Below are positions 7,174 to 57,775 of a DNA stretch of 64,000 nt, piece by piece. The notes beneath the pieces are model-generated. The model made no database searches, had not been told where the DNA came from, and worked only from the letters and a program-made list of their open reading frames with translations. The first letter of the stretch is position 1; every line of letters starts with the position of its first letter. Both the position numbers and the translations under genes were made by a program. The stretch is from an uncultured Acidobacteriota bacterium (GTDB lineage: Bacteria; Acidobacteriota; Thermoanaerobaculia; Gp7-AA8): positions 736,001 through 800,000 of the forward strand of contig CAWGHO010000002.1 in assembly GCA_963822445.1 (NCBI GenBank), given 5' to 3'.

Positions 7174-7898
7174 CGAGCTTCGACGGCTGCGCTGGCGATC
7201 TGCTGAGACTCGATCGCTTTGCGGATGTGGCGGGCGATGCGATTGATGTAGTTCACGGTCTCGCGGAATGGCGGCACCCCGTTGTACTTCCTGATGTTGC
7301 CTTCACCGGCGTTGTAGCCGGCGACGGCGAGGTCCGCATTGTCCTCGAATTTATCGAGCAGCCAGCGCAGATACTTCGTTCCGGCGTAAATGTTCTGTTC
7401 CGGGTCGAAGGAGTTGTGGACGCCGAAGCGCTTCGCGGTGGCCGGCATGAGCTGCATGAGCCCGCGCGCGCCCTTGTGGGAAACGGTCTTGGGGTTGTAA
7501 TCCGACTCGGCCTTGATCACCGCGGAGACCAGCGCGGCATCGACGTCGTGGTGGCGCGCGGCCTTGACGATGATGTCGTTGTACTTCGACTGCCAGAGCG
7601 GCATCGACTCTTCGCTGAAGCGCCAGGAGCGCCGCGGGAAAACACCGCCCTCTTCGACGATCTTCTTCACCTCGGCAACGACCTCGGGCGTGACGATCTC
7701 GTCATCCACGATCCGGTCGACGCGCAGCAGGGGAATGCTCATCTTCCCGCCGCCCTGCAAGGTCAGATGAACGACTTCTTCCTCGACCGCATACGCCTCG
7801 ATCTTCAGGCTGCGCCCGTCGGCGAAGATCGCAATGCTCGCGCTCGCCGCGTTTGCGGCAAGGATGAGCACGGTGGCAAGGATGAGGCGGATGAGCAT
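7170..7898 (-). CDS. Lytic transglycosylase (SLT domain)
   Basis: IKAESDY, GARGLMQLMP, YNAGEG motifs and a signal peptide. Confidence 0.92.
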   Translation of the reverse strand: MLIRLILATVLILAANAASASIAIFADGRSLKIEAYAVEEEVVHLTLQGGGKMSIPLLRVDRIVDDEIVTPEVVAEVKKIVEEGGVFPRRSWRFSEESMPLWQSKYNDIIVKAARHHDVDAALVSAVIKAESDYNPKTVSHKGARGLMQLMPATAKRFGVHNSFDPEQNIYAGTKYLRWLLDKFEDNADLAVAGYNAGEGNIRKYNGVPPFRETVNYINRIARHIRKAIESQQIASAAVEAR

Positions 7899-7944
7899 GG
7901 ACTGGTTGTTAACTCAGAGGGTGGGACGATTATGCCGTCGCCCG

Positions 7945-8033
7945 GGTTCCGAGGTTCCGAGGTTGCGAGGTTTCGGGGTTTCGGGGTTTCGGGGTGGGAC
8001 CTCGTAACCCCGCAACCTCGTAACCCCGTAACC
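7945..8033. repeat. Inverted octamer-array element, unit GGTTNCGR
   Basis: Six units GGTT(C/G/T)CG(A/G), short spacer TGGGA, then four reverse-complement units CC(T/C)CG(T/C)AA. Confidence 0.9.
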
Positions 8034-8049
8034 GCTCTTCGCCTCACCG

Positions 8050-8982
8050 TCATGCTCTGGGATGAAATTCCTCATACATCCTCTGCAGCCGCGCCCGCGA
8101 GACGTGCGTGTAAATCTGCGTCGTGGAGATGTCCGCGTGGCCGAGCATCATCTGCACGCTGCGGAGGTCGGCGCCGTTCTCGAGCAGGTGCGTCGCGAAT
8201 GAGTGGCGGAGGGTGTGCGGGGAGATGTGAGCTTTGATTCCGGCCGTCCGCGCGTATTTGACGATCTTCATCCAGAACGACTGCCGGGACATCGGCCGGC
8301 CGCGGCGGGTCAGGAACAGGTAGGGATCGGAGTATTTGTCGAGCTCGGGGCGGCCTTTTTCGACGAAGGCCACGATCGCGTCGCGGGCCGTGTCGCCGAA
8401 TGGCACGATCCGCTCCTTCGACCCCTTGCCGATCGTGCGGAGGAAGCCGGCGTCCATCACCACGTCTTCGATGCGCACTTTGATCAGTTCGCTGACGCGG
8501 AGGCCCGTCGCGTAGAGCAGTTCCAGCATCGCCGCGTCGCGCAGACCATCGGGCGTGCTCCGGTCCGGCGCGGCCAGCAACGCCTCGACCTCGAACGGCT
8601 GCATCGACTTCGGCAGGGACGACCAGAGCTTCGGATTCTCGAGATTCTCGGTCGGGTCTTTTTTCAGATGCCGTTCGGCGACGAGGAAGCGGAACATGCC
8701 GCGAATCGCCGCGAGTGCACGGGCGACGGACCGCGCCGAGATCCCCGACGCGCGCAGCGACTGGAAGTATTTGACGATGTGCAGCCGCTCGACCTCATCG
8801 ACTTCCACACGCTGGTCTTTGAGGTAGTGGCCGAAGTGACGCAGATCAGTCGCGTACGCGGAGAGGGAGTTCTTCGCCAGCCCCTTTTCGATCGCCAGGT
8901 AGTCGAGAAAGATCGGCAGGTACGTGACGAAGTACGGGCCGGTGTCCTTCTTCTCAGGATCGATCGCTCGCGGTTTGCGCAT
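8050..8982 (-). CDS. xerD: Site-specific tyrosine recombinase XerD
   Basis: LLYATGLRVSEL, GKGSKER, HTLRHSFATHLL, LGHADISTTQIY. Start codon uncertain. Confidence 0.92.
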   Translation of the reverse strand: MRKPRAIDPEKKDTGPYFVTYLPIFLDYLAIEKGLAKNSLSAYATDLRHFGHYLKDQRVEVDEVERLHIVKYFQSLRASGISARSVARALAAIRGMFRFLVAERHLKKDPTENLENPKLWSSLPKSMQPFEVEALLAAPDRSTPDGLRDAAMLELLYATGLRVSELIKVRIEDVVMDAGFLRTIGKGSKERIVPFGDTARDAIVAFVEKGRPELDKYSDPYLFLTRRGRPMSRQSFWMKIVKYARTAGIKAHISPHTLRHSFATHLLENGADLRSVQMMLGHADISTTQIYTHVSRARLQRMYEEFHPRA

Positions 8983-9823
8983 GTTCGGCCACCACATCCG
9001 CCATGTACGAACTGCGCACGAACGGCCCGGAGAAGACGGCGCGGAAACCGAGCTCCTCGCCGATCGCGCGGTACTCCTCGAACACGGTCGGATGGACGTA
9101 CTCGACGACGTCGAGTTTCTCCCGCTTCGGCTGGAGGTACTGGCCGATGGTCACGATCTCGACCTGCGAATCGAGCAGCCGCTTGAGCACATCGATGACT
9201 TCGTCGCGGCGCTCGCCGAGGCCGAGCATGAGGCCGGACTTGGTCGTGACCGGGTACGTCTTCGCTTCGCGGAGCACGGTGAGCGACTGAGTGAAACGAG
9301 CGCCGGGCCGCACGTAGTCGTAAAGCCGCGGCACGGTCTCGACGTTGTGATTGAAGTAGTCGGGCAGAGCCGCGGCGACGGTTCGCACGGACTCGAGATT
9401 TCCACGAAAGTCGGGAGTCAGCACTTCCACCGCTGACTCGGGCAGCGCCGCGCGAATCTCCCGGATCGTCTCCGCGAACTGCTCCGCCCCGCCGTCCGGC
9501 AGATCGTCGCGCGTCACCGAGGTCACCACGACATGTTTGAGGCCGAGGCGTTTCGCGGTCGCGGCCACATCCCGTGGCTCATCGATCGACGGCGGCGCGT
9601 ACGGCCGGCCGGTGGTGACGTTGCAGAACCCGCAGGAGCGCGTGCAGACATCGCCGAGGATCATGAAGGTGGCCGTGCCGCGGGAGAAGCATTCGGTGCG
9701 GTTCGGACACGCCAGCGACTCGCACACCGAGTGCAGGTTCTTCTCGCGCAGAAGCGTCTTCACCTCGCGCAGCGAAGCGAGGTTGAGTTTCTTCTCGCGG
9801 ATCCAGTCGGGAAGGCGTTGCAT
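8954..9823 (-). CDS. lipA: Lipoyl synthase
   Basis: CESLACPNRTEC, CTRSCGFC and RSSY motifs. Confidence 0.95.
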   Translation of the reverse strand: MQRLPDWIREKKLNLASLREVKTLLREKNLHSVCESLACPNRTECFSRGTATFMILGDVCTRSCGFCNVTTGRPYAPPSIDEPRDVAATAKRLGLKHVVVTSVTRDDLPDGGAEQFAETIREIRAALPESAVEVLTPDFRGNLESVRTVAAALPDYFNHNVETVPRLYDYVRPGARFTQSLTVLREAKTYPVTTKSGLMLGLGERRDEVIDVLKRLLDSQVEIVTIGQYLQPKREKLDVVEYVHPTVFEEYRAIGEELGFRAVFSGPFVRSSYMADVVAEHAQTASDRS

Positions 9824-9824
9824 G

Positions 9825-9905
9825 GAATGCAGAATTCAGAATGCAGAATGCAGAAAAAGCGAATCGCTTCTGCATTCTGCATTCTGCATTCTGCATTCTG
9901 CATTC
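9825..9905. repeat. Inverted heptamer-array element, unit GAATGCA
   Basis: (GAATGCA)x4 with one variant, about 12-bp spacer, then (TTCTGCA)x5. Confidence 0.9.
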
Positions 9906-9911
9906 GCCAAC

Positions 9912-9936
9912 AAAAATGCCGCCCCGAAAGGCGGCA
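9912..9936 (-). terminator. Probable intrinsic terminator after carD
   Basis: Stem TGCCGCC/GGCGGCA followed by a U-tract on the minus strand. Confidence 0.7.
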
Positions 9937-9961
9937 CTCGAAGAACTTCGAAGATTGTGAG

Positions 9962-10492
9962 CTAGTGTCCGGCAGCGGCCGCGGCGGGCGCGAGCGACTT
10001 CTCCAGGCACTTGTGGATGAGCTTTTCCGCTTCCGGCTCGGGGATGTTCTTCACGATCGCGACCTCGGAGACGAGCAGGTACTTCGCGCGGTCGTACATC
10101 TTCTTCTCGCGGAACGAGAGGCTCTTCCGTTTCTGCACTTCATTGAGATTCTTGAGCACGTCCGCGACATCTTCGAGACGACCGGTCTTCATCTTCTCGA
10201 GATTCTCGCGATAACGGCCTTTCCAGTCCGTGTGGCTCTTCACCAGCTTCTGCTCGAGCAGGCTCAGGAGACCTTTGATCTCCTTCTGCTGGTACAGACG
10301 GCGAAGTCCCACGCGGTCCTGGTTCGTGATCGGCACCATCAGCCGCGAGTTATTCGCAAGAAGCCGCAGGTGGTAGTAGCTGTCTCCCGGAGGCATGATC
10401 GGCGATTCGCCGATGTGCTCGACTACGGTGACGCCATGGTTCGGATAAACGATCTTATCCCCGACCTTGAAACCTAATTTGACTGACGACAA
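9962..10492 (-). CDS. carD: CarD family transcriptional regulator
   Basis: FKVGDKIVYPNHG, GLRRL, LSFREKKMY. Confidence 0.9.
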   Translation of the reverse strand: MSSVKLGFKVGDKIVYPNHGVTVVEHIGESPIMPPGDSYYHLRLLANNSRLMVPITNQDRVGLRRLYQQKEIKGLLSLLEQKLVKSHTDWKGRYRENLEKMKTGRLEDVADVLKNLNEVQKRKSLSFREKKMYDRAKYLLVSEVAIVKNIPEPEAEKLIHKCLEKSLAPAAAAAGH

Positions 10493-13263: not shown

Positions 13264-15096
13264 ATGAGAAAAGCCGTTCTGCTACTCACCGTTCTCTTCG
13301 TTGCCACCGTTGCGCTCGCGCAGCCGATGACGCTCGCCGTCGACGCGACCGATGCCGCGCGAGGCATCCTGCATTCGCGGATGACCATTCCCGTGACCGC
13401 CGGACCGGCGACGCTGCTGTATCCGAAGTGGATCCCCGGCGAGCACGGCCCAACCGGACCGCTCACGAATCTGGTGAACGTGCAGATCACGGCCGGCGGT
13501 CAGCGCATCGCCTGGCAGCGCGATCCGCTGGAGATGTACGCGCTTCACATCGACGTGCCCGCGGGAACCACGTCGCTCGACGTCACGGCCGACTTTCTGC
13601 TGCCCTCGAGCGGAGGGTTCACCGCCGGCCGCACGGCAACGCCGGCCCTGGGCGTGATCAGCTGGAACACCGCGCTGCTGTTTCCGAAAGGACGGCCGGC
13701 CGACGAGATCATTGTGCAGCCTTCGTTACGCGTTCCGAGCGGATGGAAGTTCGCGAGCTCGCTCGGCGTCGAGCGCACCAGCGGCGACGTCATCGAGTTC
13801 AAGCCGGTGTCGCTGACTCTGCTCGTGGACTCGCCGGTGCAGATCGGGGCGTATCAGAAAGTCGTTTCCCTGCGCGAGGCGGACGGACGCGCGCATCAGG
13901 TCGTGCTCGTTGGCGAATCGATGGAGGCGCTCGAAACTCCCAAAGACTTTGCGACGGTTGCGGACAGCCTCGTGAAGCAGGGCGGAATCATCTTCGGCGG
14001 GCGTCACTACAACTCCTACCGCTGGCTGCTCACGCTGAGCGACGGCGTGGCCCACTTCGGACTCGAGCACCATGAATCGAGCGACAACCGGCTGTCCGCG
14101 GATTCGCTGGCGACGCCGAAAGGGCATCGCGACATCTACAGCCTGCTTTCACACGAGTACGGCCACTCGTGGAACGGGAAGTACCGCCGGCCGGCGGGAT
14201 TGCTCAGCCCCGATTTCTCGACGCCGATGCAGACCGAGTTGCTGTGGGTCTACGAAGGCCTGACCGAGTACCTCGGCTACGTCCTGACCGTGCGTGCCGG
14301 CGGCTGGAAGCCCGAGGAGTTCCGCGAAGCCCTCGCTCACGCGGCCGCGAACCTGGAATCGCAGGTCGGCCGCACCTGGCGTCCGCTGATCGACACCGCT
14401 GTCCAGGCACAGGTCCTCTTCGGTGCTCCGTCGGCGTGGTGGTCGCTGCGCCGCGGCGTCGACTTCTACGGCGAATCGATCTTCATCTGGCTCGAGGCCG
14501 ACGCGATCATCCGCGACGAGAGCGGCGGGAAGCGCTCGCTCGACGATTTCCTGGCGAAGTTCTACGGCGGGATGTCCGGCCCGGCGGTGAAGCCGTACAC
14601 GTTCGACGAGCTGGTGACGGCGATCAACTCCGTGCACCCGCACGATTGGCGGACGTTTTTCAACACGCGCCTGCAATCGGTGAAGCCGGGCGCGCCGCTC
14701 GGCGGCGTAATCCGCGCCGGTTGGAGGTTCGAGCTCAACGAGACACCCAACGCCTATCGCAGCGAGGTCGAGCAGGCCGGCACCCTCAATCTGCGCAACA
14801 ACCTCGGAATGTCTCTCGGCAGGGAGGGCGTCATCTCCGACCTCGCGCCGTCAACGCCCGCGGCCAAAGCCGGACTCGCGCCCGGCTTCACGATCATCGC
14901 CGTCAACGGTGTGAAGTACTCACCGGATGTGATGCGCCGCGCGATCAAGTCGAAGCAACCGATCGAAGTGATCGCCCAGAACGGCGACTACTTCGCCGTG
15001 CACCGGATCGAGTACTCGGGCGGATTGCTGCACCCGCATCTGGTGCGGGACACGAGCAAACCGGACTTGCTATCGGCGATCCTGAAGGCGCGGTGA
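13264..15096 (+). CDS. M61 glycyl aminopeptidase with PDZ domain
   Basis: PKWIPGEH, GLEH, SHEYGHSWNGK, LWVYEGLTEY, C-terminal PDZ. Confidence 0.9.
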   Translation: MRKAVLLLTVLFVATVALAQPMTLAVDATDAARGILHSRMTIPVTAGPATLLYPKWIPGEHGPTGPLTNLVNVQITAGGQRIAWQRDPLEMYALHIDVPAGTTSLDVTADFLLPSSGGFTAGRTATPALGVISWNTALLFPKGRPADEIIVQPSLRVPSGWKFASSLGVERTSGDVIEFKPVSLTLLVDSPVQIGAYQKVVSLREADGRAHQVVLVGESMEALETPKDFATVADSLVKQGGIIFGGRHYNSYRWLLTLSDGVAHFGLEHHESSDNRLSADSLATPKGHRDIYSLLSHEYGHSWNGKYRRPAGLLSPDFSTPMQTELLWVYEGLTEYLGYVLTVRAGGWKPEEFREALAHAAANLESQVGRTWRPLIDTAVQAQVLFGAPSAWWSLRRGVDFYGESIFIWLEADAIIRDESGGKRSLDDFLAKFYGGMSGPAVKPYTFDELVTAINSVHPHDWRTFFNTRLQSVKPGAPLGGVIRAGWRFELNETPNAYRSEVEQAGTLNLRNNLGMSLGREGVISDLAPSTPAAKAGLAPGFTIIAVNGVKYSPDVMRRAIKSKQPIEVIAQNGDYFAVHRIEYSGGLLHPHLVRDTSKPDLLSAILKAR

Positions 15097-15185
15097 TGGA
15101 GTGCGGCGGCTCTGCCGCCGCTTTCCCATGCGCCGGAGGCGCGCTCCGCGCGTCGCCAAAGCGGCGGCAGAGCCGCCGCACTCCA
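15097..15185. repeat. REP doublet (REPIN-like), GGAGTGCGGCGG family
   Basis: TGGAGTGCGGCGGCTCTGCCGCCGCTTT ... AAAGCGGCGGCAGAGCCGCCGCACTCCA between two convergent stop codons. Confidence 0.9.
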
Positions 15186-15186
15186 A

Positions 15187-16500
15187 CTACGTCAAATGCT
15201 CGTGAATCAACGGCCTCGCCGCCGGCTGCTCGTCGCCGATCGTCACGAATGACATGAACCGGCTTCGCAGCTCCTCGGCGTCGCGTTTGCCTTCGCCGAG
15301 CTGAATGCGGGCGATAGCGTCGCCGGCGCGGACTTCATCGCCGGTGCGCTTGTCGAACATCACGCCGGCGGCGTAGTCGATCACGTCGTCGGCTTTCTTG
15401 CGGCCGGCGCCGAGGTCGACGGTGAACATGCCCGCGGCGTAGGTGTCCATGGCGGTGATGAAGCCGCTGCGGTCGGCTTTCACTTCGATCGTTTCCTTCG
15501 GCTGGGGAAGCAGCGAGTAATCGTCGACGATCGCGGCATCGCCGCCCTGCGCGGCGATCCACTTCCGCGTCTGCTCGAGCGCACGTCCCGAGCTCAGCGC
15601 CTCCGCAAGCGCGACGTTCGCGGACGCCGCATCGAAGCGGCCGCTCATGACCAGGATCCGCTCCGCCTGCGCGCGGGTGACTTCGAGCACATCCGCCGGC
15701 CCGTTGCCTTTCAGCACTTCGATCGTTTCCACGATCTCGTTCGCGTTCCCGGCGGCGACGCCCAGCGGGCGATCCATGTCGGTAATGAGCGCCTCGACGC
15801 GCGTGCCCGAGCCTTGCGCGGCCGCGATCAGACTCTGGGCGAGCGCTTTCGAATCCTGGTAGTGCCGCATGAACGCGCCGCTGCCGGTCTTGACATCGAG
15901 AATCAGCCCCGACGCGCCCATGGCCAGTTTCTTCGACATGATCGACGCGGTGATCAGCGGCAGCGATTCGACCGTGCCCGTCACATCGCGCAGCGCGTAG
16001 ATTTTCTTGTCCGCGGGAGCGATGCCTTCTGTCGACGTCGAGATCACGCAGCCGGCGTCGGCAACGCATTGCTCGAACTCGGCCCGCGACATCCGCGCGT
16101 TGAATCCGGGGATGGCCTCGAGCTTGTCCAGCGTGCCGCCGGTGTGTCCCAGGCCGCGGCCGGAGAGCATGCCGATCTTGATACCGCAGGCCGCGACCCA
16201 CGGCGAGAGCACGAGCGAGACCTTGTCGCCGACGCCGCCGGTGGAGTGCTTGTCGGCGAAGAAGTCGTAGCTGTCGCGCAGATGCCACTGCTCGCCGGAG
16301 CGGAGCATGGCCTGGGTCAGCGTGGCCATCTCCGCGCCGGTCATGCCGTTGATGGCGATGGCCATGAGCAGCGCGGACATCTGATAGTCGGGGATGGAGC
16401 CTTTGGTGTAGCCGTTGATGAAGAACTCGATCTCGCGCGACTCGAGCGGGTTGCCGCGACGCTTGTTGTTGAGGAGCTCGTAAACGCTGTAGTCGGCCAT
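15187..16500 (-). CDS. pdp: Thymidine/pyrimidine-nucleoside phosphorylase
   Basis: [43 protein letters not shown]. Confidence 0.92.
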
Positions 16501-17229: not shown

Positions 17230-17284
17230 TGCTGAAGATGATGGCGTCTACTTTGCGACTTTGAGACTCTGCGACTCTGAGACT
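17182..17284. repeat. Inverted octamer-array element, unit CAGAGTCT
   Basis: (CA(G/A)AG(T/C)CT)x4, about 31-bp spacer, then (ACT(T/C)TG(C/A)G)x4. Confidence 0.88.
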
Positions 17285-17291
17285 TCTTCCC

Positions 17292-40492: not shown

Positions 40493-40510
40493 AAAGGAGC
40501 CGCGTTACAC

Positions 40511-47395: not shown

Positions 47396-47398
47396 GGC

Positions 47399-47489
47399 AG
47401 TCGTTAGTCGTTGGTGATTAGTCGTTAGTAGAACGAAGCAAGCTCTTCCCAGCGTTCTACTAACGACTAACGACTAATCACTAACGACT
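47399..47489. repeat. Inverted heptamer-array element, unit AGTCGTT
   Basis: (AGTCGTT)x4 with variants plus AGTAGAACG, 17-bp spacer, then CGTTCTACT(AACGACT)x4. Confidence 0.88.
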
Positions 47490-47527
47490 TTCCGAATAGC
47501 CCACCGCCTTGCAGTGTTATTTGCAGC

Positions 47528-48496
47528 ATGCTTTTCCGCCTCACCTCGCTTCTCCTCGCCGGCGTACTCACCGGGGCGATCCATGCCCAGGACTTTACGG
47601 AAGAGGTCGCCGTCAACTATGTGATGGTGCCTTTCACCGTGATCGGCGGGCAGGGCGCGCCGATCACCGACCTCAAGCAGAAGGACGTCTCCCTGCTCGT
47701 GGACGGGCAGCCGGTGCGGACGGACATGTTCGAGATGTCCTTCAACGCGCCGGTCTCCTGGACGATCCTCCTCGACGGCTCGGGCTCGATGGGGCTGGCC
47801 GGGAAGATGGACGCGGCCAAGGCGGCCATCAACGCGCTCGTGGCCCGGCGCAGGGAAGGCGATGACTTCGCGCTGTTCGTCTTCGATTCGCAGGGGCACG
47901 CCAAGGAGATGGTTCCGTTCACCGAGAACCCAGCGGCGATCAGCCGCGCCCTCGACGTGGTGAAGCCGTGGGGCAAGACCGCGTTCTTCGACGCGCTCGC
48001 GGAGATGCCGGCCCGCAGCGAGCTGGGTCGCAACGCCTCGCGGGCGATCATCCTGCTGAGCGACGGCATCGACAACGCCTCGAACGTGACCCTTCCCGAC
48101 ATCGAAAAACAGATGGAAGGGCTGTCAATCCCCATCTACGCGTTCGGCCTTCGTGAGCCCGGCGAGACGAAGGTGACGGCGATCAGCGAGGAGATGGCGA
48201 ACATCGATCTGCTCGACGAGCTGGCGGCCGCGACCGGTGGCAAACTCTTCATCGGCAACCGGCCGGAACAGCTCGCAAGTTCAATGAATTCAATAGAAAA
48301 GGTCCTGCGGGCCCAGTATCTGCTCGGCTTTGCGCCGACAGGAAAAGGTACAGTGAAGTACCGCCGCATTTCGCTGAAGCTCGCGGGGCGCGTCCGTTCC
48401 GTCCGAGTCCGTGCCGGCTACCGCGGCACAGAGCCTCCGGTACAGAGCGTCGCAAGCCGCACCAAGCCGAAGCGCAACGAAAGGAAGAGAAGTTGA
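47528..48496 (+). CDS. VWA-domain protein (Acidobacterial VWFA-related type)
   Basis: LLDGSGSM MIDAS, TAFFDA, LLSDGIDN, QYLLGF. Confidence 0.88.
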   Translation: MLFRLTSLLLAGVLTGAIHAQDFTEEVAVNYVMVPFTVIGGQGAPITDLKQKDVSLLVDGQPVRTDMFEMSFNAPVSWTILLDGSGSMGLAGKMDAAKAAINALVARRREGDDFALFVFDSQGHAKEMVPFTENPAAISRALDVVKPWGKTAFFDALAEMPARSELGRNASRAIILLSDGIDNASNVTLPDIEKQMEGLSIPIYAFGLREPGETKVTAISEEMANIDLLDELAAATGGKLFIGNRPEQLASSMNSIEKVLRAQYLLGFAPTGKGTVKYRRISLKLAGRVRSVRVRAGYRGTEPPVQSVASRTKPKRNERKRS

Positions 48497-49110
48497 TGAC
48501 CAAAGTTACCGGGGGTATCACGGCGATCGCGCTGGTTCTGATCTCCAGCGCGTGCGCCACCAAGAAATCGGTCGAGGAACAGATCGCCGCTTCGCAGGCG
48601 ACGACGAACCAGAAGATCGAGTCCGTAGCTTCACAGGTCGAGGATCTGCAGCAGAAACAGCAGGCCACGGACGTCCGCCTCGAGCAGCTCAGCCAGTCCG
48701 CGCAGGAAGCGCTCACGCGCGCGCAGGAAGCCGGCGTGCTGGCCAAGGGACAGGTGGTCTTCGAGCAGTCGTTCGCCGAGGATCGGGTGAAGTTCAAGCT
48801 CGATTCGCACGAGCTCGATCAGAACGCGAAGACCGCGCTCGACGAGTTCGCCGGCCGGGTGAAGATCCTGCAGAGCCAGTACTTCGTCGAGATTCAGGGC
48901 CACACCGACGACACCGGCAGCGAAGCGCACAACGAGGAGCTCGGCCAGCGCCGCGCCGAATCAGTGCGCCGCTACCTGTCGCGCGAGCACAAGCTGCCGC
49001 TCAACCGGATGTCGACGATCTCGTACGGCGACACCCTGCCGGTCGAGTCGAACAAGACCAAGGTCGGCCGCTCCGCGAACCGGCGGGTGGTGCTGGTGGT
49101 ACTCGAGTAG
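48493..49110 (+). CDS. OmpA-family lipoprotein with coiled coil
   Basis: SSACATKK lipobox, GHTD, LGQRRA, SYG, NRRV. Confidence 0.9.
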   Translation: MMTKVTGGITAIALVLISSACATKKSVEEQIAASQATTNQKIESVASQVEDLQQKQQATDVRLEQLSQSAQEALTRAQEAGVLAKGQVVFEQSFAEDRVKFKLDSHELDQNAKTALDEFAGRVKILQSQYFVEIQGHTDDTGSEAHNEELGQRRAESVRRYLSREHKLPLNRMSTISYGDTLPVESNKTKVGRSANRRVVLVVLE

Positions 49111-49133
49111 ATCCGCTTTATCGCGTTTTACCG

Positions 49134-49169
49134 ACGGCCGGCGTATCAAACGCCGGCCGTTTTTGTTTT
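49134..49169 (+). terminator. Intrinsic terminator
   Basis: ACGGCCGGCGT-loop-ACGCCGGCCGT followed by TTTTGTTTT. Confidence 0.8.
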
Positions 49170-49190
49170 GGGGCGCCGGTAGCGCGCCCT

Positions 49191-49280
49191 TGGAGTGCGG
49201 CGGCTCTGCCGCCGCTTTCCCATGCGCCGGAGGCGCGCTCCCGCGCGCTTTCAAAGCGGCGGCAGAGCCGCCGCACTCCA
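49191..49280. repeat. REP doublet (REPIN-like), GGAGTGCGGCGG family
   Basis: Arms are identical and the spacer nearly identical to 15097-15185. Abuts the xth stop. Confidence 0.9.
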
Positions 49281-50024
49281 TTACCTAAACGTCGCCACCA
49301 CCGGCGCGTGGTCGCTCGTGCCGATCTCCCGCTGCGAGGGGCACGACACCGCGCGCTCGGCAAGTGCTTCGCTCGCCAGCACGTAGTCCAGCCGCCAGCC
49401 GATGTTGCGCTCGCGCATCTGCCGCCACGGCGCCCACCAGGTGAAGTAGTTCTCGTCGTCCGGATGCAGCATGCGGCCGACGTCGACCAGACCTCCGTCG
49501 CTGATCAGCCGCTCCAGCAGCTCACGCTCCATCGGCAGCTGGCCGATGACCCGCGGCTTGCGCTCTTTCGGATGCACGTCGATGTCAGCGCGGGCAATGT
49601 TCATGTCCCCGCACAACACGAGCTTCAGTCCGCGCGCACGCAGATCGGCAGCGTAGGCGATCAGCGCATTGATGAAGGCGATCTTCGCGTCGAAGTCCTT
49701 TCCGCCGTTCGGGACGTACACGCTGGTGAACACTGTGTCCTCGATTTGAGCCTGCACGATCCGCGTCTCGGTATCGAAATGTGGATGGGTGAAGACCGCG
49801 TCCCGCGCGAACTCGGTGCGGACGTGCAGCCCCACTCCGGAGTAGCCGCCCGCGCCATGCCAGTAGCAGGTATATCCCTCAATCGAACAGGCTTGCGGGA
49901 TTTGATCGATCTTCGCCTTGATCTCCTGAAGACAGATCACATCGGGCTTTTCAACGGCCGCCCACTGCGCGAATTGCTCGTGCCGCGCGCGGATTCCGTT
50001 GACGTTCCAGGTGGCGATTTTCAT
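49281..50024 (-). CDS. xth: Exodeoxyribonuclease III
   Basis: ATWNVNGIRAR, LQEIK, YVPNG, GDMN, GWRLDY, SDHAPV. Confidence 0.93.
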   Translation of the reverse strand: MKIATWNVNGIRARHEQFAQWAAVEKPDVICLQEIKAKIDQIPQACSIEGYTCYWHGAGGYSGVGLHVRTEFARDAVFTHPHFDTETRIVQAQIEDTVFTSVYVPNGGKDFDAKIAFINALIAYAADLRARGLKLVLCGDMNIARADIDVHPKERKPRVIGQLPMERELLERLISDGGLVDVGRMLHPDDENYFTWWAPWRQMRERNIGWRLDYVLASEALAERAVSCPSQREIGTSDHAPVVATFR

Positions 50025-52237: not shown

Positions 52238-53159
52238 CGCGCAGCTCCCTTCCCGTCAGCGCGACGAAGAGATCCTCGAGCGTGGCCGCGTGCGTGGTCA
52301 GCGTGATCAGCTTCGCGCCGCGCGCCTCGATCATGCTCAGGAGCTGCGGCACGGACGCGGCGAGCGAATCGACACGCAACTGCCAGCCGCCGCCGCGCGC
52401 GGTCGCGCCGTGAAAGCCGTCGATATTCTGAAAGACGCTCTCGTCGAGCGCCGGCTCGCTGACGAACTCGATGACATGCGGCGCCTCGAGCTTGGCGATG
52501 AGCTCTTTCGGCGTGCCGAGGGCGATGAGATGGCCGTGATCGACGATGCCCACGCGGTCGCAGAGGCGCTCCGCTTCTTCCATGTAGTGCGTGGTCAGCA
52601 GGACCGTCCCGCCGCCGGCGCGGAAGCGCGCCACGATGTCCCACAACTGCAGGCGGCTCTGCGGATCGAGGCCCGTCGTGGGCTCGTCGAGAAACAGGAT
52701 GTCCGGTTCACCGACGAGCGCGCAGGCAACAGCCAGCCGCTGCTTCTGCCCGCCGGAGAGCTTTCCGACGCGCGCGTTCTTCTTCTCGTCGAGCGAGAGA
52801 TCGCGCAGCAGCTCGTCGGGATTGCGGCCTTCGCGATAGAACGAGCGGAACAAGCGCAGGGTCTCGTAAACGGTCAGCTTGTCGGCGAGCTGCGTTTCCT
52901 GCAGCGACACGCCGATGCGCTCGCGCAGCTCGCGCTCGTCGTCATCCCAGTTCAGGCCGAGGATGCGCACCTCGCCGGAATCGGGATTGTTGAGGCCTTC
53001 CAGGATCTCGATCGTGGTCGTTTTGCCGGCGCCGTTCGGGCCGAGGAGGCCGAAGCATTCGCCGCGATCGACGAGCAGGTCGATGCCGTCGACCGCCTTC
53101 ACGTCGTCGTAGTGCTTCTTGAGGTTGCGGCAGGTGACCGCGGTGCCGTTGCTGCTCAC
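52230..53159 (-). CDS. ABC-2 type ATP-binding protein
   Basis: GPNGAGKTT, LSGGQKQR, LDEPTTGLD, TTHYMEEAE. Confidence 0.93.
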   Translation of the reverse strand: MSSNGTAVTCRNLKKHYDDVKAVDGIDLLVDRGECFGLLGPNGAGKTTTIEILEGLNNPDSGEVRILGLNWDDDERELRERIGVSLQETQLADKLTVYETLRLFRSFYREGRNPDELLRDLSLDEKKNARVGKLSGGQKQRLAVACALVGEPDILFLDEPTTGLDPQSRLQLWDIVARFRAGGGTVLLTTHYMEEAERLCDRVGIVDHGHLIALGTPKELIAKLEAPHVIEFVSEPALDESVFQNIDGFHGATARGGGWQLRVDSLAASVPQLLSMIEARGAKLITLTTHAATLEDLFVALTGRELRDA

Positions 53160-53190
53160 GAGGCCGGAGAAGATAGCATCCTGTGCCGTC

Positions 53191-53257
53191 GTGTGGTGCA
53201 GGCCTCCGGCCTGCCTTCAATCACCGCAGAAAGGCAGGCCGGAGGCCCGCACTACAC
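53191..53257. repeat. REP-like doublet (GTAG/GTGG-type)
   Basis: GTGTGGTGCAGGCCTCCGGCCTGCCTT ... AAGGCAGGCCGGAGGCCCGCACTACAC. Confidence 0.8.
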
Positions 53258-53280
53258 CGGGGAAGCAGTAGCATCCCGCG

Positions 53281-54195
53281 ATGCTTGCTTCACACGACCT
53301 GCGCATCGCCGTCCGCGCCACCGCCGTCAATCGCGCCGATCTCCTCCAGGCCGCCGGCCACTACCCGCCCCCTCCCGGCGCCTCCGAGATCCTCGGCCTC
53401 GAATGCGCGGGCGTCGTCGCCGAGGTCGGATCGGAGGTGCGCGGCTGGAAGAACGGCGACCGCGCGATGGCGTTGCTGGCCGGCGGCGGATACGCGGAAG
53501 AAGTGATCGTGCATCACGGCTCGGCGATGCATGTGCCCGACTTGCTGACTGACGACGAAGCGGCCGCGATCCCCGAGGTTTTCCTGACCGCGTTCCTGAA
53601 CGTCTTTCTGCTCGCCGCGGTGCGCGAAGGTGAGACCGCGCTGATTCATGGCGGCGGCAGCGGCGTGGGGACGGCCGCAACGACTTTGTGCAAGCTGGTC
53701 GGTGTGCGGGTGATCGTCACCGCCGGCTCGGATGAAAAGTGCGCGCGCTGCATCGAGCACGGCGCCGACCTGGCCATCAATTACAAGACCGAGGATTTCG
53801 TGGAGAAGGCTCGCGGCGTGAATGTGATCCTCGACCACATCGGCGCGCGCTATTTGCCGCGGGACCTCGAGGCGCTGGCCATGGACGGCCGGATCGTAAT
53901 CATCGGCTCGATGGGCGGCCAGCGCGAGGCCTCCATCGACGTGGTGAAGCTCCTCGGCAAACGCGCGCAGGTCACCGGCTCGACTCTGCGTTCGCGATCC
54001 GTCGAGGAGAAGGCCTCGATCGTGTCCGCGTTCCTGGCGCGGTTCGGCGCGGATCTGGAGGCCGGCCGCATCCGGCCGGTCATTCATTCGGTGATGCCGC
54101 TCGAGCAGTGGAAGGAAGCGCACCGGCTCATGGAGTCGAGCGAGCACTTCGGCAAGATCGTGCTCACAAGAAGTACAGGCCGGCCCACACCTTGA
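53281..54195 (+). CDS. NAD(P)H-quinone oxidoreductase (PIG3-like), short N-terminus
   Basis: VNRADLLQAAGHYPPPPGASEILGLEC, HGGGSGVG, GSTLRSR, HFGKIVL. Confidence 0.88.
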   Translation: MLASHDLRIAVRATAVNRADLLQAAGHYPPPPGASEILGLECAGVVAEVGSEVRGWKNGDRAMALLAGGGYAEEVIVHHGSAMHVPDLLTDDEAAAIPEVFLTAFLNVFLLAAVREGETALIHGGGSGVGTAATTLCKLVGVRVIVTAGSDEKCARCIEHGADLAINYKTEDFVEKARGVNVILDHIGARYLPRDLEALAMDGRIVIIGSMGGQREASIDVVKLLGKRAQVTGSTLRSRSVEEKASIVSAFLARFGADLEAGRIRPVIHSVMPLEQWKEAHRLMESSEHFGKIVLTRSTGRPTP

Positions 54196-54652
54196 GATCG
54201 ATCATCGCCGACTGTTTCCCGAGCCAGCTTTTCAGCTCTCCGCGCGGAATCGCGTGCACGGTGATGTCCTCGCCGCCCACTCCCCCGCCCTCTCCTTTCT
54301 TCGTCACGCCGAGCGCGCGGTAGAGCGTGACCAGCTCCGAAGTGATGCCGGGGGAGGAAGGGCCTTTCACGAGGCGCTCGACGGTCTCGCAGACATAGCC
54401 CGTCTCTTCTTCGAGCTCCTTCTTCGCGGTGTCGTCCGCGCTGATGGAAGGATCATCGTCACCAACCAGCCCCGCCGGCCAGTCGATGACGCGCTCGTTC
54501 ACGGGACGGCGGAATTGCTCGGTGAGGATGACCAGGCCATCGTCCGTCTCGGCGATGATCGCGACCGCTTCCTTCCCCTTTTTTCGTTCGACGAATTGCC
54601 AGCGATCGCGCTCGATGACGAGGATGTGGTCGCCGGTGAAGACTGTCTTCAT
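54164..54652 (-). CDS. NUDIX hydrolase (ADP-ribose pyrophosphatase-like)
   Basis: EQFRRPV, PAGLVGD....TAKKELEEETG. Confidence 0.88.
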   Translation of the reverse strand: MKTVFTGDHILVIERDRWQFVERKKGKEAVAIIAETDDGLVILTEQFRRPVNERVIDWPAGLVGDDDPSISADDTAKKELEEETGYVCETVERLVKGPSSPGITSELVTLYRALGVTKKGEGGGVGGEDITVHAIPRGELKSWLGKQSAMIDLKVWAGLYFL

Positions 54653-54667
54653 TGCCGCCTCCCGACC

Positions 54668-54743
54668 GGTTGCTGAGTTGCTGGGTTGCTGAGTTGCTGG
54701 GTCCCCCACCCAGCAACCTAGCAACTCGGCGACCAAGCAACCG
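54668..54743. repeat. Inverted octamer-array element, unit RGTTGCTG
   Basis: (R GTTGCTG)x4, short spacer, then (AC(C/T)CAGCA-like)x4 with variants. Confidence 0.88.
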
Positions 54744-54745
54744 TT

Positions 54746-55801
54746 TCAAAACAACATCCCTTGCAAACTCCGGCGCCGGAAGTGTTCCGTCGACAACTCC
54801 CGATCCTCTTCATTGAACCCGGACCTGCGGCAGGCCACGTCGAAGAGGGCGGCGATCTGTTCGGCGAAAATCCCTTCCCCTTTGCCCCGCACGCCCCATT
54901 TCGCGTCGTAGAGCTTGCCGCCGCGGAGGTCGCGGACGCGGTTCAGGACCTTGTCCTTGCGGTCGGGAAAGTGCTCTTCCAGCCAGCGCTCGAACAGCGG
55001 CGCGACGGCCCAGGGCAGGCGCAGCACGACGAAGCCCGCCCATTTCGCGCCGGCTTTGCGCGCGGCTTCGAGGATCTTCGGCATCTCGTGATCGGTAATG
55101 CCCGGCACGACCGGTGCGACCATCACGCCCACCGGCACGCCGGCATCGCTCAGCTTCGCCAGAGCCTCGAGCCGCATCTCCGGGGTCGACGTCCGCGGCT
55201 CCATCGTTCGCGCGAGATTCGCGTCGAGCGTGGTGATCGACACAAACACCCGCGTGGCGTTGAAGCGCGCCAGTTCGGCGAAGAGATCGGCGTCGCGCGT
55301 CACCAGGTGATTCTTCGTGATCACGCCCACTGGATTGCGGAACTCCGCCAGCACCTCGATGCAGCCGCGGGTGATGCCCAGTTTGCGCTCGATCGGCTGG
55401 TAGGGATCGGTCACGCCACTGATGGCGATGGTCTTCGGCTCCCACGACTTCTTGCTCAGCTCCTCGCGCAGCAGCTCCGCCGCGTCTTCCTTCACCAGGA
55501 TCTTCGACTCGAAGTCGAGGCCGGCGGAGAAGCCCAGGTACTCATGCGTGGGACGCGCAAAACAGTAGATGCAGCCATGCTCGCAGCCGCGGTAGGGATT
55601 GATGCTGGCCTCGAAGCCGACGTCCGGGCTGTCGTTCGTGGCGATGATGGTGCGGGTCGGATCGCGCATGTAGATCGTGCGCGGACCGGAATCACGCTCT
55701 TCGATGTGCGCGTCTTCGTCGACGACGTATTCGAGTTTTTCGAACCGGTTGTTGGGGTTCCAGGACGCCCCGCGTCCTTTGATGGGATTGGGATCGTTCA
55801 A
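54746..55801 (-). CDS. PA0069/Rv2578c-family radical SAM protein
   Basis: KGRGA, SINPYRGCEHGCIYCFAR, TDPYQPIE. TTG start overlaps the MFS stop. Confidence 0.9.
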   Translation of the reverse strand: MNDPNPIKGRGASWNPNNRFEKLEYVVDEDAHIEERDSGPRTIYMRDPTRTIIATNDSPDVGFEASINPYRGCEHGCIYCFARPTHEYLGFSAGLDFESKILVKEDAAELLREELSKKSWEPKTIAISGVTDPYQPIERKLGITRGCIEVLAEFRNPVGVITKNHLVTRDADLFAELARFNATRVFVSITTLDANLARTMEPRTSTPEMRLEALAKLSDAGVPVGVMVAPVVPGITDHEMPKILEAARKAGAKWAGFVVLRLPWAVAPLFERWLEEHFPDRKDKVLNRVRDLRGGKLYDAKWGVRGKGEGIFAEQIAALFDVACRRSGFNEEDRELSTEHFRRRSLQGMLF

Positions 55802-57018
55802 AGTTCCCGCAATTTTCGCAGACCGGGCGAGCGCCAGGCCGTGAGTGCTACGACCAGTAGAGTCATGAACCCGCCGAAAAGGACCGAAGGCACTACGCCG
55901 AGTAGACGCGCTGCCATCCCCGACTCGAACGCGCCGATCTCGTTCGACGAGCCGATGAAGATCTGATTGACCGCCGAGACGCGGCCGAGGAGGTGCTGGG
56001 GTGTGCGGGTCTGGAGGAGCGTCGAGCGGATGACCACGCTCACGTTGTCGAAGATGCCGCTGGCGAAGAGGACGGCGAAGGAGACCCAGAAGTGCCGCGA
56101 CAGGGCGAAGGCGATCATGCACACCCCGAACGCCGCCACCGACGCGAACAACGCGAATCCCGCACGGCGCATGGGCGGGCGGTGGGCGATGACGAAGCCG
56201 GTCAGGATCGCGCCGGCCGCGGGTGCAGCGCGTAGAACGCCCAGGCCTTCCGGTCCGGCGTCGAGCAACTTCGCGAACACGGGCAACAACGCGACCGCAC
56301 CGCCGAAGAGCACCGCGAACAGATCGAGAGTCATCGCCGCGAGCAGCACCGGCTCGCGCCAGACGAAGCGAAGTCCGGCCTTCAGGCTCTCACCGAACGG
56401 CTCGCCCTCTTCGACCACCGGCCGCGAACGCTCGGCCACGGACGTGATCACAACCAGGGACACGATCATCACCGCGATGACACCGCCGTAAGCGGCGGTC
56501 GGTCCCGCGAATCCGTATGCCATGCCGCCGAGAGCCGGTCCGGCCACGGCCGCGAAATGCCAGCTCGACGTCCGCCAGGCCACCGCGTTCGGATAGAGCT
56601 CGCGAGGCACGACCTGCGCGGACAGCGCCACGATCGACGGACGCATGAAACTCCGCGCGGTCGCGCTCAGCGCGATGATCAGATACACCGGCCAGACCCG
56701 TCCCGCGTGAATCGCATTCGGCGTGACGGTCAGCAACAGCAGCGCGATCGCCGAGAGCACCATCGCGAACGTGCCGGCGATCCCCATCGTCCGCCGCTCC
56801 GCGCGATCGGCCACATGCCCCGCATACAAGGCAATGGCAATGTACGGCAGCGCCTCGGCCAACCCGATGAGCCCCAGCGTCAGCGGATCGCCCGTGAGCG
56901 CGAACACCTGCCACCCCACGACCACGATCTGCGCCTCACGCGCGAGGGTGAGCGTGCCGTGGGAGAGAAGGAGCTTGCGGAAGTCGGGGATGGCCAGTGC
57001 GGCGTAGGGAGATGACAT
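55798..57018 (-). CDS. MFS transporter (MFS_3/EntS-like)
   Basis: GHVADR, TLDLFAVLFGG, SSNEIGAFESG. Confidence 0.9.
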   Translation of the reverse strand: MSSPYAALAIPDFRKLLLSHGTLTLAREAQIVVVGWQVFALTGDPLTLGLIGLAEALPYIAIALYAGHVADRAERRTMGIAGTFAMVLSAIALLLLTVTPNAIHAGRVWPVYLIIALSATARSFMRPSIVALSAQVVPRELYPNAVAWRTSSWHFAAVAGPALGGMAYGFAGPTAAYGGVIAVMIVSLVVITSVAERSRPVVEEGEPFGESLKAGLRFVWREPVLLAAMTLDLFAVLFGGAVALLPVFAKLLDAGPEGLGVLRAAPAAGAILTGFVIAHRPPMRRAGFALFASVAAFGVCMIAFALSRHFWVSFAVLFASGIFDNVSVVIRSTLLQTRTPQHLLGRVSAVNQIFIGSSNEIGAFESGMAARLLGVVPSVLFGGFMTLLVVALTAWRSPGLRKLREL

Positions 57019-57125
57019 GGTTGCTGAGTTGCTGGGTTGCTAGGTTGCTGGGCGCTCCGCAGGACGCGCGATCATGCCCCTTGGCGAAGCACTCAGCAAC
57101 CTAGCAACCCAGCAACCCAGCAACC
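57019..57125. repeat. Inverted octamer-array element, unit RGTTGCTG
   Basis: Four units directly upstream of the MFS ATG, about 38-bp spacer, four reverse-complement units. Confidence 0.9.
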
Positions 57126-57157
57126 GCGCGGCGCGCCGCGCGCTACACTGCGCCGCA

Positions 57158-57775
57158 ATGCAGCGCGAAGAGAAGTCCGAGCGCAGCCGCCGCGCGGTTC
57201 TCGATGCGGCACTTCACCTCTTCTCCCACCAGGGATACCGCGCCACGACCATGCGCGACATCGCCGATCGCGCGAAGGTCTCCACCGGCAACGTCTACCA
57301 TCACTTTCCGGACAAGGAAGCGATCTTCCGGGCGCTGCTCGACGAGTACATGGAGATCGTGGAATCGCGGCGCTTCCCGTTCACCCGCGCCTTCTACGAA
57401 ACCGATCGCTTCCCCGAGAACATCGAGGCCCTCGGATACGCCGCCCGCGCCAGCGTCAAACAGTTCCGCGACTACCTCGCGCTGTTCTACGTCGACGTCA
57501 TCGAGTTCGGCGGCACGCACATTCAGAAGTTCTACGAGTCGATGAGCGACCGCTTCACCCGCTTCTTCGAAGAACAGGGCTCGATCGACGACGTCCGGAC
57601 CCGGCTGCGGCCCTCCGTCTCTCCCACTGACGCAATGCTCCTCACCTCGCGGCTCTTCTTCAACTACTTCTCCCTCGAGATCCTCTTCGGCGTGCACGAG
57701 CCGTTCGGAAAGAGCTCGGACGAAGTGGTGAAGGAGATCGCCGACATCATTCGGAACGGAATCTGCGCACGATGA
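57158..57775 (+). CDS. TetR/AcrR family regulator
   Basis: LDAALHLFSHQGY..TTMRDIA..VSTGNVYHHFPDKE. Confidence 0.9.
   Translation: MQREEKSERSRRAVLDAALHLFSHQGYRATTMRDIADRAKVSTGNVYHHFPDKEAIFRALLDEYMEIVESRRFPFTRAFYETDRFPENIEALGYAARASVKQFRDYLALFYVDVIEFGGTHIQKFYESMSDRFTRFFEEQGSIDDVRTRLRPSVSPTDAMLLTSRLFFNYFSLEILFGVHEPFGKSSDEVVKEIADIIRNGICAR

Follow-up and report, generated by a model that had tools for sequence, protein, structure and literature searches.

Why does the base composition of coding DNA change beside a palindrome, and why does it change with opposite sign on the two sides? The question is raised by a stretch of 64,000 nucleotides (nt) from an uncultured bacterium of the Acidobacteriota (GenBank assembly GCA_963822445.1, contig CAWGHO010000002.1, positions 736,001 to 800,000), which is referred to here as the window. 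A sequence-only reading of this DNA had noticed that for about 50-100 bp the top strand loses C to the left of many palindromic elements and loses G to the right, whatever the gene orientation, and had explained these halos by repeated nicking or cutting, 5'->3' resection and cytosine damage in the exposed strands. We followed the observation through the source genome (6.0 Mb in 3 contigs, 94.7% complete; the window has a G+C content of 64%), the nearest named relatives of which are metagenome-assembled genomes of the Thermoanaerobaculia. The compositional part of the claim is confirmed genome-wide, at 288 elements.

The palindromic elements are hairpins whose arms consist of inverted arrays of tandem 7- or 8-mers. 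They were detected throughout the genome by pairing arrays reported by Tandem Repeats Finder into hairpins; 147 of the 288 have period 8, 138 period 7 and three period 6, and 12 lie in the window. The median arm measures 31 nt and the median spacer about 20 nt, and in 274 of the 288 elements the 5' arm contains more G than C. Unit sequences are many, the most frequent being ACGGGGTT (31 elements), AATGCAG (28) and AGTCGTT (24), and copies of one kind are scattered through the genome, in which families of non-tandem palindromes also occur. Genes were called with a home-made procedure based on open reading frames (ORFs) and G+C content at third codon positions (4559 genes covering 84% of the genome; stops are exact, starts uncertain), and those in the window were named by Pfam matches. 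The neighbouring genes are arranged in tandem around 158 elements, convergently around 26 and divergently around 25, with 79 unclear cases. Elements frequently abut directly on start or stop codons: the first element base is the base following the stop codon at 27815-27818 and 29793-29796 or the start codon at 57016-57019, which leaves no space for a separate ribosome-binding site or terminator.

In the following, flank strand denotes the strand whose 3' end points towards the element; to the left of an element this is the top strand, to its right the bottom strand. Over all sites, top-strand GC skew in successive 25-nt bins amounts to +0.196, +0.199, +0.060 and -0.007 left of the 288 elements and to -0.234, -0.183, -0.122 and -0.002 right of them. 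G exceeds C on the flank strand in 82.8% of the 576 flanks, and both flanks exceed 0.05 at 51% of the elements vs. 6.9% of 20,000 random sites. The shift is located at third codon positions, with positions 1 and 2 barely changing. Genes ending at an element have a frequency of C at third positions of 0.217, 0.298 and 0.438 in successive 30-nt bins and of about 0.50-0.54 farther out; at four-fold degenerate sites of their last 20 codons, C, at about 0.57 elsewhere, is down to 0.23-0.29, and G, otherwise 0.34, reaches 0.57-0.59. Expressed as C/(C+G), four-fold sites beside elements stand at 0.27-0.33 over 60 nt vs. 0.46-0.60 farther away, and the profile stays on a plateau (0.27-0.32) from 10 to 45 nt and then climbs to the baseline, attained at 82-90 nt. 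The decay of the third-position signal with distance that the sequence-only reading anticipated is thus seen, ending by about 90 nt. Its individual examples proved accurate as well: the DnaJ-type gene has 17 C-ending codons among the 24 at 27542-27613 and one among the 24 at 27743-27814 (12 end in G, 9 in T, 2 in A), exactly as counted before, and the codon pairs quoted for two YfhO paralogs (GTG/GTA, CGG/AGA, TAC/TAT, CCC/CCA, GGC/GGA, AGC/AGT, ATC/ATT) are present. A patch of opposite order near 59790-59980, which had been held up as counter-evidence, does exist (59750-60050) but has no such weight. Genome-wide there are 525 skew peaks of forward polarity, 142 of them on elements, and 440 of reverse polarity; since reverse switches are as common as forward ones away from elements, patches of this kind occur at chance level and this one is ordinary noise.

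The base that is lost is C. At two-fold sites, T/(T+C) on the flank strand is 0.406 vs. 0.176 where this strand is the sense strand (odds ratio (OR) 3.2) and 0.496 vs. 0.221 where it is the antisense strand (OR 3.45), and the frequency of C at four-fold sites is practically identical in the two cases (0.225 and 0.224). Loss of C extends to all eight four-fold families, being 2.0- to 13.5-fold relative to G and 2.1- to 7.8-fold relative to all other bases, and is 3.7- to 6.8-fold whichever of the four bases follows; neither the eight families nor any following base revealed a deaminase sequence context. Codon preference is overridden: the share of GGG among GGN codons goes from 0.10 to 0.46, that of CGG among CGN codons from 0.17 to 0.52. 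An equilibrium model in which loss of C is raised 3.3-fold, with a small additional A term, predicts a four-fold composition of A.063, C.265, G.592 and T.080 and comes near to the observed A.095, C.225, G.597 and T.082, in contrast to a model of G gain (A.032, C.329, G.61, T.03), which misfits. As loss of C alone reproduces the G excess, no C>G mutation has to be invoked for the shift to G. Of the cytosine damage with C>T and C>G outcomes that had been proposed, C>T is therefore borne out at two-fold sites and C>G is not required, and the epithet 'kataegis-like', which implies clusters of separate recent events and a deaminase context, is not supported: the halo presents itself as a steady compositional state, free of deaminase context. 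As a separate observation, C<>G transversions form the commonest class of differences between window positions 24000-33900 and related contigs from soil metagenomes (in one metagenome run, X3, C>G 114, G>C 117, C>T 74 and T>C 63).

A skew at gene ends in general was the obvious concern, and the sequence-only reading had named it as such. The control set comprised the 3' ends of 3116 genes, more than 400 nt distant from any element and more than 200 nt from any other inverted repeat of at least 13 bp; element detection being incomplete, these element-free controls may contain degenerate elements. Four-fold C/(C+G) in the controls is 0.413, 0.427 and 0.462 vs. 0.533 inside the gene, as compared with 0.297, 0.251 and 0.380 vs. 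0.602 for the 193 genes whose ends lie beside elements, the first two values of each series covering the last 14 codons. A weak skew of the same sign thus exists in every gene-end context, overlapping genes included, and to this extent the concern was justified; beside elements, however, the skew is larger and carries another signature, as two-fold purine sites have an A/(A+G) that increases towards the stop codon in the controls and decreases beside elements. The weak gene-end skew is itself largely specific to this genome, since the dip over the last seven codons is 0.13 here and, in the three other Acidobacteriota sampled, 0.05, 0.02 and 0.03. Beyond the halo, genes ending at an element have a four-fold C/(C+G) of 0.60 vs. 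0.53 in other genes, and it may be that elements tend to follow the more strongly codon-biased genes.

The halo is independent of the orientation of both the gene in the flank and the gene across the element. In the four possible arrangements of neighbouring genes, four-fold C/(C+G) is 0.267, 0.293, 0.278 and 0.260 at 1-30 nt and 0.328, 0.336, 0.330 and 0.305 at 31-60 nt, despite baselines that differ between arrangements (0.57-0.63 vs. 0.45-0.47). There is no link with the unit composition of the arms (Spearman -0.03, p=0.64), the halo being equally strong beside arms balanced in G and C, and its strength varies neither with arm length or arm match nor with the loop, the length of which ranges from less than 10 nt to 60-200 nt. 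Tandem arms are not needed: over all sites, unrelated long palindromes with stems of at least 17 bp also carry a halo (0.417-0.436), flanks of inverted repeats with stems of 13-16 bp have a C/(C+G) of 0.45-0.47, and short chance inverted repeats of 10-12 bp have none (0.50).

Several simple causes were tried and rejected. A one-sided replication-fork model fails because both sides are skewed regardless of the sign of the regional skew (0.104/0.131 in regions of negative, 0.098/0.116 in regions of neutral and 0.129/0.110 in regions of positive skew; replichores are poorly defined in this assembly). A motif or Chi-like signal was not found, since even the most frequent words, which are common in coding DNA anyway, are confined to a minority of halos; Rfam has no family in the window. 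Runs of three or more G are rarer than in phase-preserving shuffles (1.24 vs. 1.54), which speaks against G-quadruplexes. An extended stem is not indicated, since cognate flanks pair at -34.6 and non-cognate flanks at -33.6 kcal/mol (p=0.08) and the in-register match is 0.27-0.29 in both. Decay of repeat units is at odds with a flank composition that does not follow the arm unit, and methylation or CpG context with a loss of C devoid of context dependence.

The phenomenon is not confined to one genome. Among 135 loci (1.53 Mb) around the DnaJ-type gene, taken from other Thermoanaerobaculia genomes and metagenomes, 87 contain a total of 165 such hairpins with other unit sequences, and these likewise have halos (four-fold C 0.240 and 0.227 vs. 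0.506 and 0.444; ORs for two-fold T/(T+C) 3.7 and 5.0). Among orthologs of the window genes, the last 20 codons have a third-position C/(C+G) of 0.353 where an element follows (n=51) and of 0.426 where none does (n=517), and 12 of the 14 ortholog groups in which both states occur have the lower value with the element, although these kin are not independent of each other. The genes are conserved to the last codon in relatives with and without an element, so the halo lies in genuine coding DNA. In eleven relatives of the same genus the last residues of the DnaJ-type protein are kept, and 4-12 of the last 24 codons end in C as compared with one here; some element-free members of this genus already have more G than C at these third positions (e.g., 4 C and 14 G, 6 C and 14 G of 24 codons). 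The site after this gene is occupied in relatives by no element, another element or a one-armed remnant, and a contig of 1104 nt from a related organism joins 29789 to 29919 through 29 other letters, from which it follows that this organism lacks the element. The turnover of the elements is thus rapid. At two of the loci, both from relatives of the same genus, a one-sided AGCACTC-type array with only the C-rich arm (L085) and a short hairpin of degenerate octamers (L092) follow the DnaJ-type gene and look like remnants or early stages. The closest genomes share 72-87% DNA identity, scans of genomes and metagenomes gave at most 76% protein identity, and public sequencing runs contain at most 13% of the sampled words of the stretch.

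More distant Acidobacteriota were represented by three small samples (2.8 Mb). One from another family (G042, 1.2 Mb) has a halo at inverted repeats with stems of at least 15 bp (0.408; G exceeds C at 20 of 24). Its repeats have long spacers of 60-137 nt, and one with a 34-bp arm is present in two copies. The second (G067, 1.2 Mb) has no halo at 27 hairpins with stems of at least 15 bp (0.510, 95% interval 0.487-0.534; 8 of 27), and its repeats are terminator-like, with loops of 2-9 nt. The third (G074, 0.4 Mb) has only four repeats, all with more G than C (0.433). Perfect inverted repeats of at least 15 bp number about 77 per 1.2 Mb in the genome studied here vs. 24-27 in two of the outgroups.

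Within the window, G exceeds C on the strand pointing at the element in 20 of the 24 flanks of the 12 tandem hairpins, with three ties and one reversal. The elements are given below, each with its span including halos of 90 nt, the C and G counts of 60 nt on either side read on the strand that points at the element, and the neighbouring genes (strand in brackets).

7944-8033 (span 7854..8123), tandem-octamer hairpin, unit GGGTTTCG; left 12 C/23 G, right 12 C/22 G; SLT transglycosylase gene 7170-7898 (-) and XerD-type recombinase gene 8050-8997 (-).
9825-9905 (span 9735..9995), tandem-heptamer hairpin, unit GAATGCA; left 14 C/22 G, right 16 C/16 G (tie); left, start of radical SAM gene 8954-9823 (-); right, end of CarD-type gene 9962-10492 (-).
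17182-17285 (span 17092..17375), tandem-octamer hairpin, unit CAGAGTCT, arms balanced in G and C; left 13 C/28 G, right 10 C/26 G, i.e., a halo is present although the arms have no skew of their own; left, 3' end of an ORF (+) named queC in the sequence-only reading; right, start of radical SAM gene 17292-17924 (+).
24638-24718 (span 24548..24808), tandem-octamer hairpin, unit GTTACGGG; left 7 C/25 G, right 11 C/24 G; left, end of YfhO paralog 2, stop at 24707; right, end of rph 24724-25506 (-).
26818-26891 (span 26728..26981), tandem-heptamer hairpin, unit GTCAGTG; left 19 C/12 G (the sole reversed flank), right 15 C/18 G; divergent genes, nucleotidyl transferase 25503-26810 (-) and DnaJ-type gene 26909-27817 (+).
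27818-27898 (span 27728..27988), tandem-octamer hairpin; left 9 C/23 G, right 9 C/28 G; left, DnaJ-type gene, stop directly before; right, start of macro-domain gene 27902-28330 (+).
29796-29888 (span 29706..29978), tandem-heptamer hairpin, unit AATGCAG; left 17 C/26 G, right 16 C/22 G; left, metallo-beta-lactamase-fold gene 29034-29795 (+), stop directly before; right, EPSP synthase gene 29811-31151 (+), the true start of which is probably beyond the element.
33522-33581 (span 33432..33671), tandem-heptamer hairpin, unit GGTAGGC; left 11 C/29 G, right 17 C/22 G; left, start of LOG/lysine-decarboxylase-type gene 32786-33514 (-); right, end of beta-lactamase-family gene 33607-35796 (-).
40344-40443 (span 40254..40533), tandem-octamer hairpin, unit GTTTCGGG; left 11 C/21 G, right 11 C/16 G.
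47399-47489 (span 47309..47579), tandem-heptamer hairpin, unit AGTCGTT; left 14 C/22 G, right 11 C/22 G; left, end of CxxCxxCC-domain gene 46991-47395 (+); right, VWA-domain gene 47528-48496 (+).
54669-54742 (span 54579..54832), tandem-octamer hairpin, unit GTTGCTGA; left 19 C/19 G (tie), right 12 C/21 G; left, start of a NUDIX gene; right, end of radical SAM gene 54746-56122 (-).
57019-57125 (span 56929..57215), tandem-octamer hairpin, unit GGTTGCTG; left 8 C/29 G, right 22 C/22 G (tie); left, MFS transporter gene 55798-57018 (-), start codon directly before; right, TetR-type gene 57074-57775 (+), start uncertain.
15097-15185 (span 15007..15275), non-tandem palindrome, family TGGAGTGCGGCGGCTCTGCCGCCGCTTT, perfect stem of 28 bp; weaker halos, left 16 C/21 G, right 15 C/22 G.
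32502-32590 (span 32412..32680), non-tandem palindrome, family TGGAGTGCGGCGGCTCTGCCGCCGCTTT, stem of 29 bp; left 16 C/24 G, right 19 C/18 G.
49191-49280 (span 49101..49370), non-tandem palindrome, family TGGAGTGCGGCGGCTCTGCCGCCGCTTT, stem of 28 bp; left 20 C/21 G, right 18 C/23 G.
2549-2643 (span 2459..2733), inverted repeat with a stem of 18 bp and GGTAGGCAGTA-type units, outside the range covered by the sequence-only reading; left 15 C/21 G, right 13 C/19 G.
53201-53247 (span 53111..53337), inverted repeat, family GGCCTCCGGCCTGCCTT, stem of 17 bp; left 16 C/22 G, right 15 C/22 G.
61275-61375 (span 61185..61465), inverted repeat, stem of 14 bp; no clear halo, left 18 C/16 G, right 18 C/19 G.

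At the hairpin 24638-24718 the reading frame of YfhO paralog 2 passes through the left arm and the spacer and meets a TAA stop in the right arm (24707), so that about the last 23 residues are encoded by the element; no element lies at the end of paralog 1. Towards their C-termini (21728-22219 and 24070-24564) the two paralogs share long runs that are identical codon for codon in proteins with 50% overall identity, and these runs in tandem paralogs may reflect gene conversion.

What, then, maintains the halo? Its polarity, mirror symmetry and C-specificity, together with its indifference to transcription and to element sequence, argue for a strand-specific process that is centred on the hairpin and acts at the level of DNA, and not for an RNA-level function. 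With moderate confidence we regard the halo as a local, polar and C-specific mutational equilibrium that results from recurrent single-strandedness 5' of the hairpin. The anatomy of the halo, its C-specificity, its symmetry and its independence of transcription direction and element sequence are observed; that mutation rather than selection is at work, that single-stranded DNA is the intermediate and by which route it arises we infer. Cytosine deaminates far faster in single-stranded DNA, and it is for this reason that recurrent exposure of the flank strand, the simplest process of this kind, is the proposed cause. Beside every long dispersed palindrome able to form a hairpin, the strand 5' of it would lose C about 3-5 times faster than elsewhere, with a plateau of about 45 nt and a fading out by about 90 nt. 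As third positions are held at G or C in a genome with 64% G+C, a lost C would mostly give way to G at four-fold sites, and to T at two-fold sites. Such pressure would override codon preference and leave its mark even on the free ends of the encoded proteins. The arms of the elements, which are unconstrained, have a C/(C+G) of 0.265 (1359/(1359+3770)), a value equal to that of the four-fold plateau, which we count in favour of the mutational equilibrium.

Exposure could come about by two routes. A polymerase might be blocked by the hairpin in its template, so that the 5' side of the template would be left uncopied as a gap; this would work on either strand. Alternatively, the element might be nicked or cut, and 5'->3' excision might then proceed outwards from there. 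The latter is the route favoured in the sequence-only reading, and the polarity is indeed as it predicts, but a blocked polymerase would produce the same polarity without any break, and SbcCD, the bacterial hairpin nuclease, was not found. A 2025 review (PMC12708500) argues that the main immediate result of secondary structures in eukaryotic templates is strand-specific single-stranded gaps. Inverted repeats in yeast are reported (PMC3681665) to raise mutation in flanking genes via breaks and resection.

SbcD and SbcC have no match in this genome (94.7% complete), and SbcD is over the cut-off in none of 41 relatives (a tally that includes the unpublished genomes G002 and G030) and in nine of 61 Acidobacteriota. 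Among the small outgroup samples, SbcD is present in G067, which has no halo, and in G074, in which four of four repeats have more G than C, while G042, with its halo, gave weak matches only. The failure to find SbcCD may explain why long palindromes are tolerated. It also removes the obvious cutting enzyme, and the Y1 (RAYT/IS200-like) nucleases of the genome become the candidates for the second route. Four Y1_Tnp matches exceed the Pfam cut-off (contig C2:149470, 335771, 1162531 and 1610903), RAYT and IS200 TnpA not being told apart among them. A palindrome belonging to the dispersed CGTACGGCGGGCGTCCCGCCCGC family is located some 350 nt away from the match at 1610903, and a tandem-octamer hairpin about 1.4 kb away from that at 1162531; the other two have no palindrome nearby. 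A match to recJ (contig C3:1657450-1658915) is distributed over three reading frames, which stay open for 259, 166 and 322 amino acids; the assembly may carry frameshift errors, and the split is due either to a broken gene or to assembly indels.

A wider picture can be offered tentatively, as one possibility. Mobile palindromes with a fast turnover, in a lineage lacking SbcCD, may keep about 50-90 nt on either side recurrently single-stranded with fixed polarity and thereby rewrite the synonymous codons and terminal residues of adjacent housekeeping genes; the weak skew at other gene ends would then be the fading 'ghost' of departed elements, and the halo would amount to a natural footprint, left throughout the genome, of single-stranded DNA next to hairpins that the sequence by itself makes legible.

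Several observations weigh against a mutational equilibrium. The substitutions are unpolarised, so a raised mutation rate and a fixation bias are not separated. Sizeable residence in the single-stranded state is needed, by a rough estimate, for a 3- to 5-fold loss of C. A fixed scale of 45-90 nt is predicted neither by replication gaps nor by long-range resection, and if the dose depended on how readily the hairpin forms, halo strength would be expected to vary with loop length, arm length and arm match, which it does not. Flanks co-oriented and anti-oriented with their gene reach the same absolute value and not the same ratio to their baseline, behaviour more in keeping with a set-point than with a multiplier, though the comparison is blurred by uncertain starts. 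To these must be added the weaker skew at element-free gene ends of the same genome and the A>G companion change, which is present here (ORs for A/(A+G) 0.78 and 0.67) and absent in the relatives (1.04 and 1.00); no argument made here relies on that change.

A rival explanation is that strand composition is selected, with the hairpin and about 80 nt per side forming one functional module. On either strand, whatever RNA or single-stranded DNA follows the hairpin would be poor in G and hence unstructured, for instance as a loading tract for Rho or as an insulator against read-through in both directions, and the upstream side would be its mirror image. A plateau of about 45 nt and an end at about 90 nt are of the order of a Rho binding tract; the uniform composition reached from different baselines and the insensitivity to loop, arm length and match resemble a set-point; the pressure raises GGG and CGG against codon preference; and elements lying directly against start and stop codons are probably transcribed. 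On the other hand, the halo is equal where no neighbour is transcribed towards the flank (0.260/0.305 between divergent genes and 0.293/0.336 for a co-oriented gene facing an anti-oriented one), elements are not enriched at convergent gene ends, neither an enriched motif nor, in the window, an Rfam family was found, the scarcity of G runs speaks against quadruplexes and cognate flanks pair no better than non-cognate ones. We judge selection to be less probable than a mutational equilibrium. As there is no dose relation and as length and absolute composition are fixed, it nevertheless stays a serious rival.

A preference of the palindromes for inserting or surviving where the skew already switches from plus to minus has a small chance of being correct. 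It would draw on the weak skew of the same polarity at every kind of intergenic boundary, on the element-free relatives with G above C after the DnaJ-type gene, on the dispersal of the elements in families and on the Y1 transposase-like genes. Yet element-free orthologous ends are far less skewed (0.426 vs. 0.353; 12 of 14 groups), the end of the DnaJ-type gene has one C-ending codon here vs. 4-12 in its eleven congeners, the arms themselves have plateau composition, and away from elements 383 plus-to-minus switches stand against 440 minus-to-plus ones, so that no pool of pre-skewed empty sites exists. The missing pool and the ortholog contrast are what make this preference less likely.

An ordinary codon effect at gene ends (make-up of the termini, relaxed structure or ribosome-binding sites) that merely coincides with elements is very improbable and already largely refuted. 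Element-free 3' ends, even those of overlapping genes, do fall to 0.41-0.43 from 0.53, but the effect is 2-3 times larger beside elements, has a plateau reaching to about 20 codons, lowers A/(A+G) instead of raising it, is anchored on the element rather than on the stop, has the same size on sense and antisense strands and includes four-fold sites, and in the three other Acidobacteriota the dip is only 0.02-0.05 vs. 0.13 here. Decayed repeat units, imperfect stem extension or an assembly artefact, for which the G/T-rich commonest arms with their resemblance to left flanks could be cited, are already refuted and scarcely deserve further consideration, as the flanks are independent of arm composition and lack cognate complementarity and the change sits at third positions of conserved proteins and recurs in relatives' contigs from other assemblies.

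If the halo is mutational, small palindromic repeats act as local mutators of defined reach and polarity that override codon bias in essential genes, and the extent and strand of DNA exposure beside hairpins could be read from any genome. If it is selected, the repeats are the core of a module of about 250 nt with flanks inside genes, which changes annotation and the reading of synonymous sites near gene ends. Either way, caution is advised when codon usage, synonymous divergence (dS) or skew is analyzed in repeat-rich genomes, and the halo offers a connection with the absence of SbcCD that can be tested. The full-text literature searched contained no account of halos of this kind.

Among known systems, repetitive extragenic palindromic (REP) sequences and REPINs with their RAYT (Y1) nucleases (PMC3733652) are similar in that dispersed families of intergenic palindromes are packed between genes, and four Y1_Tnp genes are present here; they differ in that most of our elements have arms of tandem 7- or 8-mers with many different units, and no flank halo is described for REPs in the literature searched. 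Transcription offers a second parallel. R-loop GC skew at gene ends and Rho utilisation sites combine G richness of the upstream non-template strand with about 80 nt downstream that are rich in C and poor in G, and such a rut-type tract is matched in composition only: the halo is independent of the transcription direction of either neighbour, and where a Rho terminator would have its tract solely on the side towards which a gene is transcribed, the four gene configurations are equal. Nor does placement resemble that of intrinsic or bidirectional terminators, which are expected after 3' ends and rarely between divergent genes, given 26 convergent, 25 divergent and 158 tandem cases.

Mutagenesis by inverted repeats in yeast (PMC3681665) likewise affects flanking genes but reaches up to 8 kb compared with about 90 nt in the halo, and the bacterial counterpart of its hairpin-opening nuclease, SbcCD, was not found here. 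Kataegis and resection clusters share with the halo a strand-coordinated change of cytosine on the 3'-ending strands on both sides of a centre; the halo differs by its steady state and its freedom from deaminase context. Also comparable are the skews caused by single-strand exposure, i.e., bacterial replication GC skew and the gradient along vertebrate mitochondrial DNA. There, too, one strand loses C, mainly at synonymous sites and graded with exposure, and the G excess is an equilibrium effect; C>T on one strand and grading with distance are found in the halo, whereas sidedness by replication-fork direction is not, and the T>A and A>G companion changes are weak or not reproducible. The halo is moreover insensitive to the sign of the regional skew, its local four-fold skew is about 0.45 vs. 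about 0.01 regionally, and instead of a replichore it spans tens of bases, arranged in mirror symmetry at hundreds of palindromes.

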